Of a stretch of DNA of 64,000 nt, positions 1-46,547 are shown piece by piece. Source of the stretch: an uncultured Bacilli bacterium (GTDB lineage Bacteria > Bacillota_I > Bacilli_A > RF39 > UBA660). Below the pieces are notes generated by a model. That model saw only the letters and a program-made list of their open reading frames with translations, made no database searches and had not been told where the DNA came from. The stretch covers positions 44 through 64,043 of the forward strand of contig CANRDF010000002.1 of assembly GCA_947629255.1 (NCBI GenBank), written 5' to 3'. The translations under genes and the position numbers were made by a program. How positions within the stretch are numbered: the stretch's first letter is position 1; each line of letters starts with the position of its first letter.

Positions 1-1
1 C

Positions 2-289
2 CTATTCGTTAATATTTTTAATGTTGTTATTATTATAAGTCATCCCTTTGGCTTTTGCAACTTCTTGAATTTTATCTAAAGAAGCAAGTTCATCGACCTG
101 CATGGATAAAGATTCATTAATACCTTCTTGTTCACTAATTTTACTACGCATTTGTTCTAGAGTAATATTTGTTTCTGATAACACTGCTTTGGTAAAGACA
201 ATAGAAACCGGAAATAAAAACAAAGCAATTCCAATTAAAACAAATAGCATTTTTTCTCCTCTTAAATAACGGTAATATCTTTTTTTCAT
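2..289 (-). CDS. ftsL: FtsL-like cell division protein
   Basis: 95 aa. Its start overlaps the rsmH stop (ATGA at 286-289). One N-terminal TM helix (LFVLIGIALFLFPVSIVF) is followed by a coiled-coil-like region. It sits in the canonical slot after mraZ-rsmH. Confidence 0.6.
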   Translation of the reverse strand: MKKRYYRYLRGEKMLFVLIGIALFLFPVSIVFTKAVLSETNITLEQMRSKISEQEGINESLSMQVDELASLDKIQEVAKAKGMTYNNNNIKNINE

Positions 290-1215
290 GAATTCTCTAT
301 CCTTTCTATGATTCTTAATTTCGCACTTTTACTTCGACTATTCATCTTTATTTCTTCTTCACTTGGAAGAATTGGCTTTTTACTCACTAATTTTACTTTT
401 GGTAAGTATTCTTTTGGAATTTCTGGTAATCCTTTTACCATAGGGTTTATTTCACTGTACTCCCTAAAGACTTTTTTGACAATTCGATCTTCTAAAGAAT
501 GAAAAGTAACTACGACCAGTCTTCCCCCAGGGTTTAGTAAGTCTATCGCATCAGGTAATACGCTTTCTAAATCTTTTAATTCTTCGTTTACTTCGATTCG
601 TATGGCTTGAAAGATATTTCTTTCTGGATGATTTTTAAAGAAATAGTTTGCTCCAACAGCGTCCCTTATGATATCCACAAGTTCTAAGGTTGTTTTGATT
701 GGTTTTTCTTTTCTTGCATTCACAATTTTACTTGCGATAAATGCACTTTTTTGTTCTTCTCCATACGTATAAAAGATTCGTTTTAAATCTTCTAGAGAGT
801 ACGTATTTACAACGTCATAAGCGGTTTTCGTATCACGCTTATCCATTCGCATATCCAAGTTCTCTTCTCTCATAAAAGAAAACCCACGTTCCTCATCTAG
901 CTGTGGAGAGGAAACCCCCAAATCAAATAATATGCCATCCACTTTTGTTACTCCAACACTTTCTAAGCACTTTTTCATATTGGAATATCTTGTTGAAAAA
1001 ATTTCAAAGTTATTTCCAATCTCACTTAAAACTTCTTTTGAGTAACAAACTGCTGTTTCATCACGATCGAAGGCGAATAATTTTCCCCTTTTTATTCTTT
1101 TTAATATTTCACTGGCATCCCCGGCATATCCAAGTGTAGCATCGACATAGATTCCATCACTTTTGATATTTAATCCTTCTATGGATTCTTTTTTTAACAC
1201 TGTATAATGCTTCAT
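286..1215 (-). CDS. rsmH: 16S rRNA (cytosine1402-N4)-methyltransferase RsmH/MraW
   Basis: 309 aa with MraW-family motifs DATLGYAGD and VVTFHSLEDRIVK. 4-nt overlap with mraZ upstream. Confidence 0.9.
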   Translation of the reverse strand: MKHYTVLKKESIEGLNIKSDGIYVDATLGYAGDASEILKRIKRGKLFAFDRDETAVCYSKEVLSEIGNNFEIFSTRYSNMKKCLESVGVTKVDGILFDLGVSSPQLDEERGFSFMREENLDMRMDKRDTKTAYDVVNTYSLEDLKRIFYTYGEEQKSAFIASKIVNARKEKPIKTTLELVDIIRDAVGANYFFKNHPERNIFQAIRIEVNEELKDLESVLPDAIDLLNPGGRLVVVTFHSLEDRIVKKVFREYSEINPMVKGLPEIPKEYLPKVKLVSKKPILPSEEEIKMNSRSKSAKLRIIERIENS

Positions 1216-1646
1216 TCATTCACTTCCATAAATAGATTCTCGGCGATATCACTAAGTTGTTCTTCGTTCGTGGTTAAGAATTTTTCCCACTCATCCTTAT
1301 CCCATATTTCAATTCGATCATTCGCGCCGATTACAACGCATTCTTTCGTTAAACCGGCGTGATGAACGAGTGGGGAGGTAATACAAGTTCTTCCTTGACG
1401 GTCAAACTCGCAAACAGTAGCACCAGAGAAGAAACTTCTTATAAAAGTTCTAGCATCTTTTTTGGTAAAAGGTAGAGTATTTAATTTTTCCACAAGATTT
1501 TGCCAATCTTTCATAGAATAGATGTATAAGCATTTCTCGAGACCTTTTGCAATAATGAATTCTTCTTGCAAAACTTCACGAAACTTTGTTGGGATAACAA
1601 TACGTCCCTTTTCATCAATGTTATGATGGTATTCACCCATGAACAT
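1212..1646 (-). CDS. mraZ: transcriptional regulator MraZ
   Basis: 144 aa with two SpoVT/AbrB-like halves (DEKGRIVIP and DRQGRTCI). First gene of the mraZ-rsmH-ftsL unit. Confidence 0.9.
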   Translation of the reverse strand: MFMGEYHHNIDEKGRIVIPTKFREVLQEEFIIAKGLEKCLYIYSMKDWQNLVEKLNTLPFTKKDARTFIRSFFSGATVCEFDRQGRTCITSPLVHHAGLTKECVVIGANDRIEIWDKDEWEKFLTTNEEQLSDIAENLFMEVNE

Positions 1647-1656
1647 ATTTTATCCC

Positions 1657-1691
1657 CCACTTTCTTCCACATTTCACCACTGTTCTACCAC
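1657..1691 (-). promoter_or_regulatory. array of four direct GTGG boxes (MraZ-operator-like) just upstream of mraZ
   Basis: The minus strand reads AGTGGTagaacAGTGGTgaaatGTGGAagaaAGTGGGGG. CCAC occurs on the plus strand at 1657, 1667, 1677 and 1688, giving 10/10/11-nt spacing. MraZ is known to bind phased GTGG(G) repeats in its own promoter. Confidence 0.5.
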
Positions 1692-1742
1692 TATATTACT
1701 AAAAGTCACAAAAAAAGTAAAGAGAAAAGATTTTAAAAATTA

Positions 1743-1772
1743 CAAAAAAAATCAACTTTACATAAAAGTTGA
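1743..1772 (-). terminator. rho-independent terminator (bidirectional hairpin)
   Basis: 8-bp stem TCAACTTT/AAAGTTGA (1752-1759 / 1765-1772) with a 5-nt loop, followed on the minus strand by TTTTTTTTG. It separates the surface-protein/TR region from mraZ. Confidence 0.6.
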
Positions 1773-1976
1773 CATTTTTATTGATCAAAAATTTTTTCAT
1801 TTTTCCTCCAACATCATAAATAGTGCTGTTATCATTTGAAATATTTGTATAGGAAGTTTACGTATAAACTTCCATCTGCATAGTGAATTTGGGCTATATC
1901 CTGGATAAATAATGTCCCTTATCCCTCTCAAATTATAGCCTTAACCATAAAATCCACGTATTATAAGGGGCTACAG

Positions 1977-2070
1977 AAGGGCAGGCCAAACACCGTTGGA
2001 GTTGTTAGCATTGTTGTTGCTCAAATACCCGTTCGAATTCACATTGAACGCATTGTTAGAGTTAGACATA
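1977..2070 (-). repeat. DGR template-repeat (TR)-like non-coding copy of the surface-protein 3' end
   Basis: AAY-rich: 12 AAY codons in 24 when read in the VR frame. It aligns codon-for-codon with 2240-2335, with differences concentrated on its adenines, and shares the GC-rich 3' block CCTGCCCTT. Confidence 0.55.
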
Positions 2071-2164
2071 TTTAATTTACCCCCTTTAATTATCACCAAT
2101 CTTGAGTTTGTTGATAACTCACCTGGAAGCCGGGACGAACATCCGCCCGTCCAACGGCTCATGA

Positions 2165-4900
2165 CTACCCCGCCGTCAATTGAAACGGTAAACTTGAAGT
2201 TCCCGTACCGCCCGAGATGCTCACAGAGAATGACAGATAAAGGGCAGGCAACACACCGTAGGAGTAGTAAGTGCCGTAGCGGTAGTTGACAAACCCGCTC
2301 GAAAGAACAGCGAACACAGAGTTGGAGTAAGGCGAATACGGCGATAACGTCCACATCCAACCACTTCCTGGTTTTAACCAATCATTCGAAGCACATTGTG
2401 TCTGATAATCTTCACTATTCCAGTTATATAACGCTTTTGCAAAACAACCATCTCTTCCTGTTTCTCCTCCACTTGTTGCATATCCATAATCACTTGGATA
2501 TGGGAGTGCGATACTTTTGAATAAACCAGAATCAGGTACTTTTGTACTTGTAGTTTCTGCAGATGATCTTCCTGTGTTACTTGCTTGCCATTCTGTTACT
2601 CTTGCAAAAGGTAAACCTTTAGTATAAGCAGAAGTTCCTCTTTCTCTTTCATAAAACATACTTACTGTTACATCATTATAAGTACTACTGCCTCCTAGAT
2701 TCCATATAATATCTTTATCTATCATATCTCTTGCTGATTCTTCCAATCCTTTAGTTCCTGTATCTGTTCCATCAAATTGACACGTTGTTTGTGAAGAAAT
2801 AGAACCATTGCTTCCTTTATAACAAGATACATCTGAAGAAGAGTTATAATATCCATCATTTAACATTTCCATTAATTGACTATCCGTCCAATCATTACTT
2901 CCAGTATCACTTGTAGAACTTCCTATTCCATCATCTTTATAATCCCAACTAAAGTCTTTTTCATTTGCTTTAATAGGATCAGCTCTTATTATTTTTATTC
3001 TTTGTTGAATTCCACTTGTTGTTTTCACATTTACTAAACCGATAATCCTCCATAATTCATTATTGAATCTTACATAATTATCTGGATTTACTCCTGCATA
3101 TCTTAATTCTGTTACTTGCCATTTTGCATCCATCGTTGTTTGGTCTGTATGTGGAACTTCATATAAACCATTTCCAGTAGTCACTATTTCCACATCTTTT
3201 ATTACATCAGTTGCTAAACCACTTATATATATTGTTTGACTAACTTCATTTACATTTCCAACAACATCTTTCACTCTTAATGTTACTTTATGTGTTTTTC
3301 CATATTTAGGGACAATAAATTCATGACTATTATCTCCACTTGTCCATTCTTCACTGTCATCTAATTTATATTCATAAGAAGCAATATTTGACTCACTATC
3401 TGTACTTCCACTTGCATCTGCTGTTATTGTTTTACCATTTACACTTAATTTAAGATTTGCTACTGGTGAATTGTTATCTACCCAGTTTATGCTTATTGAA
3501 TCATGACTTACATTATTATAAGCATCTTTCGCATAAATGTAATAAGTTCCATTTTCTGTTACGGTATAATCTATACTATGACTCTTTGGATTATTTTCAA
3601 TTGTTTCCCAAGATTCTGGATTTTTTTCTTCTTTCATTACTTGATATCCAAAAAGTCCTGCTTTTTCATCACTTAGTTTTATATGAATCGTGTCACTGGC
3701 TCCCCATGTAATTAATTCATTTGAAAGTTCAATTGTTGGTGGATCTTTATCTATAATTTCTGTACTATATTTCATGGAACTGGTATGTCCCATTGCATCT
3801 TGAGCAAAAATATAATAAACTCCATTATCTTCTATTGTTTTGGTAATTACTTGTTCTTCTTTGGTATTTTCTATTTCTGTCCAACTTTCTGGAGGTTCTG
3901 GTGTACTTTCTGAAAGTAATGCGATTGGTGTTAAGTCTTCTTTAATAACTTGGTATTTTACTAATCCACTTTGGGAATCTTTTAATGTTATTTTTAATTC
4001 TACTGATTGATAATTATTTGTTTCTGTATAACTAATATCTGGTCCTGTGGTATCAATCTTTGTCACTTCAAATTCTTGTTCTTTTTCATTTCCTACTTCA
4101 TCTTTTACTGTAAAGTAATAGGTTCCTGCTTTGGTAAATGTTTCTGTCACTGTAAATGTTTTATCTTTTTTACTAATTGGTTTCCAATTTTGGGTTTCTT
4201 GTCTTTCACTAATTTTGTATTCTGTTAAATCATATTTATCACTTGTTGCTGTAAGTGTAATACTTTCACTTTCTTCGTTATATATATCTGTATTAGATTT
4301 GGCAAGAACATTTACATCATTTTTTAATTGTTCATTTGATTTGTAAGTTGCTGTTACTGTAATCTTACTTTTAAAATAAGCATTCATCACATCATCGATT
4401 GCTGGTGTAGTTTCTTCTAACCATAATCTTAAATGATATGTGACACTTTTATGTTCTCCATCTAATATTCCTGTCGTTAGTCTATGGGAAGCAGTTGCAT
4501 TTTCTATCGTTTGAGTTACACTTTCATAGCTATTCAATAATGTAGGAGTTCTATCATCTAGTTGTACTTTTATATATTGTTCGGGTAAAGGTTTTTGCCC
4601 TTCCTCTAAACTTAATGTTTCTAGATTTACTTGATAAGTTAAAGAAGTTGTACATACATTGGTAATTGTAAATTCATAAGGAGTTAATTCGTGTCCTTCT
4701 TCATCACTAATAGGATAAGCTTTTGGTAATGAAATTGGATTTTTTTCATCTGTTAAAGTCACTTGAAAACAACTAGATGCTAATCTATCTTCATCTGTTT
4801 GAAATGCTCGAAATTGCCAAAATGCATAAGAGATTCCTACAACACTTAAAACTAAAATACAAACCCCTATAATTATTAAACTTTTTTTCTTTCTTTCCAT
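2165..4900 (-). CDS. large surface protein with N-terminal signal/anchor, tandem Ig-like repeats and a variable lectin-like C-terminal domain
   Basis: 911 aa. N-terminal TM segment (LIIIGVCILVLSVVGISYAFW, reminiscent of SipW/TasA-type signals). About 4 tandem ~95-aa repeats (..GTYYFTVKDEVGN.., ..GVYYIFAQDAMGH.., ..GTYYIYAKDAYNN.., ..KVTLRVKDVVGN..). C-terminus reads WMWTLSP...GVLPALYL. Confidence 0.85.
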   Translation of the reverse strand: MERKKKSLIIIGVCILVLSVVGISYAFWQFRAFQTDEDRLASSCFQVTLTDEKNPISLPKAYPISDEEGHELTPYEFTITNVCTTSLTYQVNLETLSLEEGQKPLPEQYIKVQLDDRTPTLLNSYESVTQTIENATASHRLTTGILDGEHKSVTYHLRLWLEETTPAIDDVMNAYFKSKITVTATYKSNEQLKNDVNVLAKSNTDIYNEESESITLTATSDKYDLTEYKISERQETQNWKPISKKDKTFTVTETFTKAGTYYFTVKDEVGNEKEQEFEVTKIDTTGPDISYTETNNYQSVELKITLKDSQSGLVKYQVIKEDLTPIALLSESTPEPPESWTEIENTKEEQVITKTIEDNGVYYIFAQDAMGHTSSMKYSTEIIDKDPPTIELSNELITWGASDTIHIKLSDEKAGLFGYQVMKEEKNPESWETIENNPKSHSIDYTVTENGTYYIYAKDAYNNVSHDSISINWVDNNSPVANLKLSVNGKTITADASGSTDSESNIASYEYKLDDSEEWTSGDNSHEFIVPKYGKTHKVTLRVKDVVGNVNEVSQTIYISGLATDVIKDVEIVTTGNGLYEVPHTDQTTMDAKWQVTELRYAGVNPDNYVRFNNELWRIIGLVNVKTTSGIQQRIKIIRADPIKANEKDFSWDYKDDGIGSSTSDTGSNDWTDSQLMEMLNDGYYNSSSDVSCYKGSNGSISSQTTCQFDGTDTGTKGLEESARDMIDKDIIWNLGGSSTYNDVTVSMFYERERGTSAYTKGLPFARVTEWQASNTGRSSAETTSTKVPDSGLFKSIALPYPSDYGYATSGGETGRDGCFAKALYNWNSEDYQTQCASNDWLKPGSGWMWTLSPYSPYSNSVFAVLSSGFVNYRYGTYYSYGVLPALYLSFSVSISGGTGTSSLPFQLTAG
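2240..2335 (-). repeat. DGR variable-region (VR)-like segment inside the 911-aa ORF
   Basis: Encodes YSNSVFAVLSSGFVNYRYGTYYSYGVLPAL and pairs with the TR-like copy at 1977-2070. Part of a locally GC-rich patch. Confidence 0.55.
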
Positions 4901-4905
4901 AATAA

Positions 4906-4932
4906 AAGACCTACTTTCTATCCTATAGGTCT
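4906..4932 (-). terminator. hairpin plus T-run between rpe and the surface-protein ATG (possible rpe-operon terminator or 5' leader structure)
   Basis: 7-bp stem AGACCTA/TAGGTCT (4926-4932 pairs with 4906-4912) followed on the minus strand by TTTTATT and then the ATG at 4900. Confidence 0.35.
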
Positions 4933-4964
4933 ATTCTATCATACCCCCCCCCCCAGTTTGTCAA
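4933..4964 (-). promoter_or_regulatory. sigma70-type promoter with a G11 homopolymer in the spacer
   Basis: The minus strand reads TTGACA (4964-4959) AACT G11 (4954-4944) TATGAT (4943-4938), overlapping TAGAAT (4938-4933). It lies 38 nt upstream of the ATG. Confidence 0.5.
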
Positions 4965-5649: not shown

Positions 5650-5811
5650 TTTTCTTCTCTCCCATCTTATTTTTTAAATATTCATCTATTTCTTTTTGAA
5701 TTTCTTTTTCAAATTCCTCATCAATCCTAATTTCTTCATCAGATAATTCTTCTAGTTCTCTATCGTCAAATAAATCTTTCCATTTTTTCATCATTTTCTC
5801 TAAAAATTTTT

Positions 5812-25660: not shown

Positions 25661-26594
25661 TTAATTTAGCTTTGTAATAGATTCAACTAAGTAGTTTGTA
25701 CGTTTGAAAATTAAATTTAAAATAATTGTTAAATACTTAATAATAATGGCAAAGATAAGAAAGATTCCAGAAAAGCCAAAGGATAAGAATAACATTGTCG
25801 TTGTCCAACCTTCTACTGGCTTTCCAGTAAAGAATACCATTAAAGTATAAATAAATACAAAAATTGCAAAAAGAAACATCAAAATTGTAAGAACAATAGA
25901 TGCTTTATAACTTACATCGGTAAATAAAATTAAAGCATCAAAAGCATTTTTCTCTCTTTCTTTTCTTAAATTTTTATCCATCCTTGCTTTATATTCTATC
26001 GTAATATCATAATAAATCGTTTCTTTAGAAAGTCCACAGCTTGCTTCAATTGCTTTACGATATGGAACAGTTTTATTTAACGAATTCATTCGATTAATAG
26101 CTCTTCTTGATAAAATTCTAAAAGTTTCTGTATCAATTTTATTTTGAGAATAGGAAAAATGATTAAATATTTTGTAAAATAGTTTTGAAGATAATTTTCT
26201 TTTTCCTTTTGGACTTGCACTTACAATATCGTATCCTTCTAATGATTTTACATAAATATCAAAGATTAATTTGGAAGAATAATCTAAATTGATTGTATCA
26301 AATTCATATACAAAATCGCCAATGGCTAAGTCCACTCCAGCACTCATAGAGAGTTCTTTTCCTTGATAGAAACTCATATTTATGACGCTACAGTTACCCC
26401 CCCCCCTTAACGTTTTTTGACCACTCTCGGATAACCTCAGAAGATTTATCTGTAGAACAATCATTCACAAAAATTAGTTCATACTTTAAAAAATGATCTT
26501 GTAATGACTGATTTAAGATATCTGCAAACTTCAAAATATTTTTTTCATCATTTCGTATATAAATCACAGCAGATATAAAATTTTTTTCTTTCAT
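25661..26594 (-). pseudogene. GT2 polyprenyl-phosphate glycosyltransferase (ArnC/GtrB/CsbB-like), frameshifted at a G10 tract
   Basis: The two ORF-track pieces (26394-26594 and 25661-26464) are the N- and C-terminal parts of one GT2 (..ISAVIYIRNDEKNI..VNDCSTD.. / ..SMSAGVDLAIGDFVYEFD.. plus 2 C-terminal TMs). They are joined only if the homopolymer is G9 or G12. Confidence 0.8.
26397..26406 (-). repeat. homopolymeric G10 (C10 on the plus strand) tract inside the GT2 coding sequence
   Basis: Counted directly: 26397-26406 are all C. The upstream frame ends AAG GGG GGG GGG TAA. Confidence 0.9.
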
Positions 26595-46343: not shown

Positions 46344-46547
46344 AAGGATCATTTTCCCCCCCTCGAGTGAGCTATTCTACAACAAGGGGGGGTATGTCGA
46401 AACTTGTCGAATGATGTCGTCCAAAATTATATATCACCTCTTTTAATTATTTTTAGATTCTTAACTTTAAAAATTAGGAATAACATAGAAACTTATTCCA
46501 TTTTTTCTTGTTTCTTTCTCATTAAAAGCAAAAAAATTCAAGAAAAA

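Follow-up and report, generated by a model that had tools for sequence, protein, structure and literature searches.

We consider it highly likely that the G11 homopolymer on the minus strand upstream of the gene for a 911-aa adhesin-like protein is a phase-variable promoter element and, more specifically, still likely that it forms the variable-length spacer of a portable σA cassette that would switch the members of a surface-protein multigene family. In the proposed scheme slipped-strand mispairing at replication would add or remove guanosines, thereby shifting the distance between the -35 and the -10 box. The RNA polymerase of this clade would prefer a spacer of 17 ± 1 nt; at G11, i.e. 20 nt, the gene would be off or transcribed at a basal level from the extended -10 element only, and at G9 (18 nt) or G8 (17 nt) it would be on. 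In the consensus of a population most paralogues would appear off, the common lengths G10 and G11 representing the mutational equilibrium.

The promoter and its gene

Direct reading of the minus strand from 4970 to 4898 of the window (the whole stretch of 64,000 nucleotides that was analysed) gives TACCCC-TTGACA-AACT-GGGGGGGGGGG-TATGA-TAGAAT-AGACCTATAGGATAGAAAGTAGGTCTTTTATT-ATG (Table 1). The preliminary description had located an 11-nt tract between a -35 box and two overlapping -10 candidates, TATGAT (4943-4938) at 15 nt and TAGAAT (4938-4933) at 20 nt, in front of the ATG at 4900, and all these coordinates and lengths are confirmed. The G+C content of the window is 27.9% and its only two G/C runs of at least 10 nt are found at 4944-4954 and 26397-26406. 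As none of 100 dinucleotide-preserving shuffles of this window contains G10, the G11 tract is not a chance run. A standard promoter scan allowing spacers of 16-18 nt did not call the promoter, as expected for a spacer of 20 nt, and an alternative -35 placed 17 nt from TAGAAT can be dismissed, the hexamer at this position being ACAAAC, which is no match. The surrounding genes, all on the minus strand, are arranged in the order prkC, rsgA, rpe, 911-aa gene, mraZ, rsmH, and a terminator scan between the rpe stop codon (5032) and the promoter detected no terminator.

Table 1. Positions of the promoter, the hairpin, the gene and the second poly-G tract in the window
Feature	Position	Strand	Basis or remark
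Conserved upstream box AATAAACCACAAA	4988..5000	-	5' cassette edge in the closest paralogues
-35 hexamer TTGACA	4959..4964	-	TTGAC in 24 of 25 distinct cassettes tabulated
AACT, 5' non-G part of the spacer	4955..4958	-	together with TATGA gives N0 = 9
G11 homopolymer (C11 on the + strand), candidate slippage tract	4944..4954	-	direct reading
TATGA, 3' non-G part of the spacer	4939..4943	-	TRTG/TGn "extended -10", TG at 4941-4940
-10 hexamer TAGAAT	4933..4938	-	20 nt from the -35 at G11; T1/A2/T6 invariant in 18 cassettes
Hairpin	4907..4932	-	5' arm AGACCTAT 4932-4925, loop 4924-4915, 3' arm GTAGGTCT 4914-4907
Shine-Dalgarno-like AGAAAGTAGGT	4919-4909	-	overlapped by the 3' arm of the hairpin
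T-run TTTATT	4906-4901	-	directly after the hairpin
911-aa secreted/anchored adhesin-like protein	2165..4900	-	domain searches, family comparison, structure model
Second poly-G tract, G10	26397..26406	-	in a GT2 (PgfS/GtrB-like) glycosyltransferase gene, 26594..25661

The 911-aa protein starts with a basic and hydrophobic N-terminus, as expected for a signal or anchor. Its N-terminal domain of about 190 aa is conserved throughout the family, Ig/PKD-like repeats are present and the C-terminal domain is variable. NCBIfam and Pfam recognize only a PKD/OmpL47-type Ig-like domain, and a sequence search of the PDB matched no solved structure. The N-terminal domain is modelled by AlphaFold as a β-sandwich (pLDDT 71), for which only weak pilin-like or TasA-like matches were obtained (E at least 2.6e-3, TM about 0.3). 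Rfam lists nothing near the promoter locus. Neither the 911-aa protein nor the 205-aa Rpe ORF is on record as an identical sequence, and look-ups with MraZ, RsgA and a 201-aa Rpe returned the same few low-coverage contigs each time.

A scan covering one genome per species identified 436 loci encoding the N-terminal domain. The 80 loci retrieved all stem from metagenome-assembled genomes (MAGs) of uncultured gut "Bacilli", "Tenericutes", "Firmicutes" or "Clostridium sp."; the samples include rabbit, Hadza and chicken, and genomes with at least 8 copies are frequent. On these numbers "surface-protein multigene family" is a fair description. The preliminary description had also combined the promoter switch with a hypervariable tip of the type generated by diversity-generating retroelements (DGRs). 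The gene cannot be regarded as a DGR target within the window, since a search of these 64 kb for a repeat partner of the 3' end of the gene (2165-2700) revealed no template repeat, a YxDD motif scan yielded no reverse transcriptase-like ORF, and the C-terminal coding region (2165-3113) is identical in two other samples. Thus, the suggested two-layer variation finds no support in the window. Metagenome contigs of the same strain (L001-L003) break in or at the end of the surface-protein gene, at window positions 3222, 3113 and 2160, which is likely due to sequence common to the paralogues; compared with window positions 1-3222 they exhibit no differences in the C-terminal region.

A recurring cassette and its register

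The G11 tract lies in the spacer of a σA-type promoter, and the same -35/poly-G/-10 module precedes paralogues and homologues at unrelated loci in several species. It is laid out as TTGAC-N, 0-5 nt, G7-G12, extended -10 (TAnAAT), hairpin and ATG, and this layout, with a homopolymer of at least about 7 nt between recognizable -35 and -10 boxes, is present in 25 distinct cassettes. Two paralogues from the same sample as the window locus (P0002 and P0003, 82% and 55% identity) and a homologue from a related rabbit-gut MAG (P0004, 69%) are located at unrelated genomic positions, and each has the module on its 5' side. The modules 5' of the ATG at these loci are TTGACT-tgtgt-G10-TATGATAGAAT (L006), TTGACT-tgt-G11-... 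(L008) and TTGACA-cc-G10-...TATAAT (L009). The AATAAACCACAAA box lies about 30-35 nt 5' of the -35 in L019 and L025 and has a variant form in L008.

G7-G11 tracts stand upstream of about 16 of the roughly 70 family loci with upstream sequence, in several MAG species, and wherever a run of at least G8 occurs in about 498 kb of fetched DNA (25 runs) it lies on the sense strand at a gene start. A metagenome scan specific for the locus gave 0 matches; the general cassette pattern TGTAAATTGAC-N1-4-G7+ was used instead and returned 27 contigs, and all low-GC contigs among them (about 18) carry this type of cassette where the downstream sequence suffices. Moreover, the cassette is found 5' of other gene families on metagenome contigs, e.g. 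prepilin-like genes (MNKKGFTLVELL..., MNKKGFTLVELLAVIAIL...), which in three samples have G10 (L099), G9 (L114) and G12 (L117). In L117 a T-to-G substitution lengthens the tract, the total spacer still being 20 nt. Two copies look like decayed tracts, both at about 2400-2440 of their contigs: L067, TTGACA-tttagaGGGAGGGGtatgg-TAGAAT, has an interrupted G-run in a 19-nt spacer, and L017 retains only G4 before ...TGaTAAAAT, its hairpin being present. The paralogues L024, L027, L033, L035 and L036 from one MAG, BRZ_FK__bin21, are preceded by a similar module, GTCAAACAATTGTAAATTTACTTTACAG-TTG-T6/7-GATATAAT, in which a short stretch of T takes the place of poly-G and a TATCGTA/TACGATA hairpin stands directly 3' of the -10.

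Two hexamers may be considered as the -10 box. When 18 cassettes are aligned over the stretch between -10 and ATG, both included, T1, A2 and T6 of the distal hexamer are invariant, the classic -10 signature, whereas the proximal TATGAT, which the preliminary description had also taken as a -10, is not conserved and would require spacers of 11-15 nt in the other cassettes. Counted to the distal hexamer, the spacers of the 25 distinct cassettes contain 10 nt outside the G tract (N0) in 19 cases, 9 nt in four, and 12 nt and 8 nt in one each, although this part is split around the tract in different ways (1+9, 2+8, 3+7, 5+5, and 4+5 in the window). The total spacer amounts to 20 nt (17 cassettes), 19 nt (2), 21 nt (1), 18 nt (1), 23 nt (1) or 16 nt (3), and the three 16-nt spacers represent one G7 lineage.

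To set the register, G-free TTGACN-Nk-TAnAAT pairs in 655 kb of the same DNA may serve as reference. They peak at k = 17, with 17 unique sequences, as compared with 2-7 unique sequences at each of the other spacings and 2 at k = 20. The narrow spacer optimum thus has a statistical rather than a biochemical foundation, drawn from the G-free promoters of the clade, and suggests that the RNA polymerase of the clade behaves canonically with a preference for 17 nt. As G-free promoters prefer this distance, the length of the tract should set the register of the promoter, and since the clade peaks at 17 nt and the cassettes at 20 nt, the assembled G10-G11 cassettes look 3 nt out of register, i.e. off or low. 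No cassette with at least G9 has a 17-nt spacer, and the single cassette at 18 nt is G8. In the window, where N0 is 9, G8 would result in 17 nt and G9 in 18 nt. Two routes to the on state had been envisaged, and only the loss of 2-3 G remains plausible; the gain of 1-2 G is unsupported because it depends on the unconserved TATGAT. That G11 is off and G8-G9 is on at this promoter is our favoured assignment, held with some reserve. The extended -10 may render the promoter partly independent of the -35 and thus blunt the effect of the switch.

A predominant spacer of 20 nt could also be the functional form. In such a fixed architecture a rigid G·C block would be part of an activator-dependent promoter (realignment by a MerR-type regulator) or serve as a protein-binding or structural element, and changes in length would be rare deleterious noise. 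MerR-type regulators re-align mis-spaced -35 and -10 boxes on spacers of 19-20 bp, and a design of this kind would account for the 20-nt total being shared across species with compensating differences in the flanks, for the many orthologous copies from different samples that are all G10, and for the interrupted, non-slippery G-rich spacer of L067 (GAGGGAGGGG), which is 19 nt long and not 17 nt. Nevertheless, we regard it as unlikely. The window spacer (AACTGGGGGGGGGGGTATGA) was examined for a MerR-type operator and has no dyad symmetry for a dimer, the related G7 lineage has spacers of 16-17 nt with the same N0, tracts from G7 to G12 are observed and the window locus itself differs between samples. 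Moreover, G10 tracts also break reading frames within coding regions (see below), which fits a mutational mode and not promoter design. On paper, a G-quadruplex, A-form shortening of the G block and reiterative transcription were considered as well, and none of them explains the excess of 3 nt.

Extended -10 promoters can work without a -35, so the element TGaTAGAAT might suffice and the G tract might be a hypermutable but neutral passenger. A TGn extended -10 is indeed present in 16 of the 25 cassettes. However, TTGAC and an N0 of 10 are conserved despite diverged surroundings, which would be unexpected if the -35 and the register were irrelevant, and neutral G10-G11 tracts should decay in a genome with 28% GC, whereas few loci (L017, L067) have decayed. 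We therefore judge a neutral tract to be quite improbable and retain the phase-variable spacer as the preferred explanation.

Tract lengths at the promoter and within coding regions

A comparison of tract lengths between samples reveals G10 and G11 at the locus and G7-G12 among the cassette copies, in assemblies of about 4-5x coverage. The tract is G11 in the window and in L091 and G10 in L090; the contig L093 ends within the tract and L094 just before it. The flanks at the locus are otherwise identical in these contigs. Only three assemblies, L090, L091 and L093, read into or through the tract here. A comparison of L090 with the window along 5.7 kb shows only two indels, one of which is in the tract. 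At a coverage of only about 4-5x the G10/G11 difference could also originate from slippage in vitro, i.e. during sequencing or PCR.

The second indel of L090 is the deletion of a single T (TT to T) at about 3064 in prkC, equivalent to about 7590 in the window. It splits PrkC into ORFs of 271 and 315 aa and represents either a genuine frameshift or an error caused by low coverage. At 5695-5757 the same contig ends by folding back: past the hairpin it runs into the promoter again in reverse complement (…TAGGTCTATTCTATCATACCCCC), which is an artefact that the inverted repeat has seeded during assembly. The contigs L007 and L011 begin within the G tract.

That the tract as a whole is an artefact, i.e. 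poly-G from two-colour Illumina chemistry or a mis-assembly, is hardly credible: contigs often end at the tract (L007, L011, L093, L094) and the fold-back of L090 lies just downstream of it, but the tract is internal to a 64-kb contig, and its recurrence in identical position and orientation, with conserved promoter flanks, across independent studies, hosts and assemblers excludes this explanation.

Poly-G tracts are found within coding regions, too. The second tract of the window interrupts a GT2 gene in such a way that the assembled G10 yields a truncated product of 66 aa, whereas G9 or G12 would restore an intact protein of 310 aa, a constellation typical of a translational switch. In the 310-aa product the Glycos_transf_2 match spans the tract and the PgfS model covers residues 7-305. 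The neighbouring genes, encoding an FAD oxidoreductase, a second GT2, an EamA-like pair and a LytR-CpsA-Psr protein, form a cell-wall glycan locus. Other samples have G11, by substitution, or G8 with loss of the following T (-3 nt in all). All three alleles are in an off frame and no "on" allele was seen anywhere, as would be anticipated for loci that are each off in the majority of cells; switching itself is thus a prediction. Similarly, two members of the surface-protein family carry an out-of-frame G10 within the 5' part of the coding region, 3' of an upstream ATG, at L023:2482 (in frame with G9 or G12) and L053:2476 (in frame with G8 or G11). The family may thus use both transcriptional and translational poly-G switches, both as candidates, and intragenic frameshift tracts in the same genome and family mark the lineage as a user of poly-G contingency loci.

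The hairpin and related systems

The helix of the hairpin between -10 and ATG already includes the final two nucleotides of the -10 hexamer, where it begins. In the window its stem comprises 8 bp, its loop 10 nt and its energy is -8.8 kcal/mol, other cassettes reaching -14.9 kcal/mol, and the Shine-Dalgarno region within the 3' arm reads GGTGAT or TAGGT. A T-run follows in all 18 aligned cassettes; the window copy was not called by the terminator scan, and the L057 copy (11 bp, loop of 5, T-run) was called terminator-like. Some cassette lineages lack the hairpin. Across the 18 cassettes pairing is preserved in 96% of the cells, with compensatory changes at 6 of 10 pairs. The covariation score is 0.588; in shuffles it is 0.196 and none of 500 attains the observed value, and slid controls pair to 33-51% only. 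As the hairpin covaries and many of its pairs are U-G with U in the 5' arm, it appears to be selected as RNA of the sense strand. A DNA operator is disfavoured, many of the pairs being U-G on the sense strand only.

A start site about 7 nt past the -10 excludes the 5' arm and, therefore, the hairpin would form only in RNA coming from upstream. A transcript from the window promoter (start at about 4926) would be devoid of the 5' arm and keep its ribosome-binding site free, whereas read-through RNA from the upstream rpe operon would contain both arms and would either be terminated or have its ribosome-binding site masked, so that expression would be governed by the switch alone. With the start site placed from the position of the -10 only, we see an even chance that the hairpin acts as an insulator against read-through. 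More tentatively, and with some doubt, we speculate that a "switch plus insulator" cassette operates clade-wide at hundreds of surface-protein and pilin-like genes, in which a mutational equilibrium of G10-G11 would park the promoter in the off state, 3 nt out of register, and the hairpin would form in read-through RNA only, each gene being silent unless its tract is G7-G9.

The mechanism very probably belongs to the class of promoter-spacer switches represented by porA, tp0126, tpr and vlp and would extend it to a new lineage. In porA from Neisseria meningitidis and tp0126 from Treponema pallidum a poly-G tract is located between -35 and -10, with an optimum of 17 nt (PMC7864442). The promoter tracts of the tpr genes (E, G, J, L) are permissive up to G8 and near background at G10; for T. 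pallidum tprL the reporter signal was clearly higher with the G8 promoter and about background with G10, and most copies by far in the isolates studied had G9 (PMC7864442). As in these systems, a guanosine homopolymer resides in the σ70-type promoter of a gene for a surface or outer-membrane protein and, as in tpr, the common lengths would be off and the on state shorter, here by 2-3 G. In contrast to them, our system is found in a Gram-positive-type, low-GC uncultured gut lineage that is known from sequence alone, the cassette is common to a far larger family and to unrelated genes, and it combines an extended -10 with a hairpin overlapping the start.

In mycoplasmas indels in the -35/-10 spacer switch transcription of vlp, maa2 and vmm on and off (PMC2268961). 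The family described here resembles M. hyorhinis vlp, M. arthritidis maa2 and M. mycoides vmm in being surface-protein genes with a candidate spacer indel switch, and several of its records are titled "Tenericutes". The vlp genes use poly(A) and belong to a multigene family whose members all possess a conserved promoter region, and vmm uses TA repeats. Unlike both, the present tract is poly-G in a genome with 28% GC and, unlike Vlp, the proteins are large, multidomain and adhesin-like rather than lipoproteins with repeats. The T-tract in the vpma promoter of M. agalactiae is a homopolymer and not a switch (PMC2268961), so a promoter homopolymer need not be one.

The modal tract length in Campylobacter jejuni is attributed to a mutational pattern in which G8 undergoes insertions and G11 deletions (PMC3401435). 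Both lineages have many G8-G11 tracts per genome at surface-structure genes, including an intragenic glycosyltransferase tract, here at 26397-26406. C. jejuni tracts are mostly intragenic, whereas most of those found here are in promoter spacers. For the hairpin the closest parallel is the left end of IS200, where a terminator and a Shine-Dalgarno-sequestering stem-loop act against impinging transcription (PMC4513863). Likewise, the stem-loop described here would block outside transcripts so that its own promoter alone counts but, in contrast to IS200, it overlaps the -10/+1 region of a candidate phase-variable promoter of a host surface-protein gene. IS10 is similarly protected against outside transcripts by "fold-back inhibition". 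A promoter-overlapping insulator is thus a possible extra twist beyond the known switches and, if it insulates against read-through, a compact design principle.

A literature search for RF39 together with phase variation found nothing. The contingency-locus strategy is known mainly from pathogens such as Neisseria, Treponema, Campylobacter and Mycoplasma. If the switch works, contingency loci would provide surface variation in abundant uncultured gut bacteria with reduced genomes, found in rabbit, chicken and human, which would apply the strategy to a very large adhesin-like family, pilin-like genes and a cell-wall glycosyltransferase. Poly-G tracts also break metagenome assemblies and give rise to gene calls that resemble pseudogenes. 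The distribution of tract lengths among reads could serve as a culture-free read-out of the surface proteins that a population expresses.

Two further elements were observed. A GTCAA-N11-TTGAC inverted repeat that includes the -35, and/or TGTAAA abutting TTGAC, is present in L022, L034, L047, L058, L103, L106, L116 and others and absent from the window copy; it might act as an UP-like element or as a site for a regulator. In the window an inverted repeat composed of a C4 stretch and the G-run flanks the -35 at 4968-4944. It resembles a 7-bp G·C inverted repeat of C7 and G7 runs around TTGTTGTAGAATAG at 46356-46392 on the minus strand, which lies directly 5' of the ATG at 46352, the start of a fragmented gene that looks like a candidate Rpn/PD-(D/E)XK-type pseudogene.
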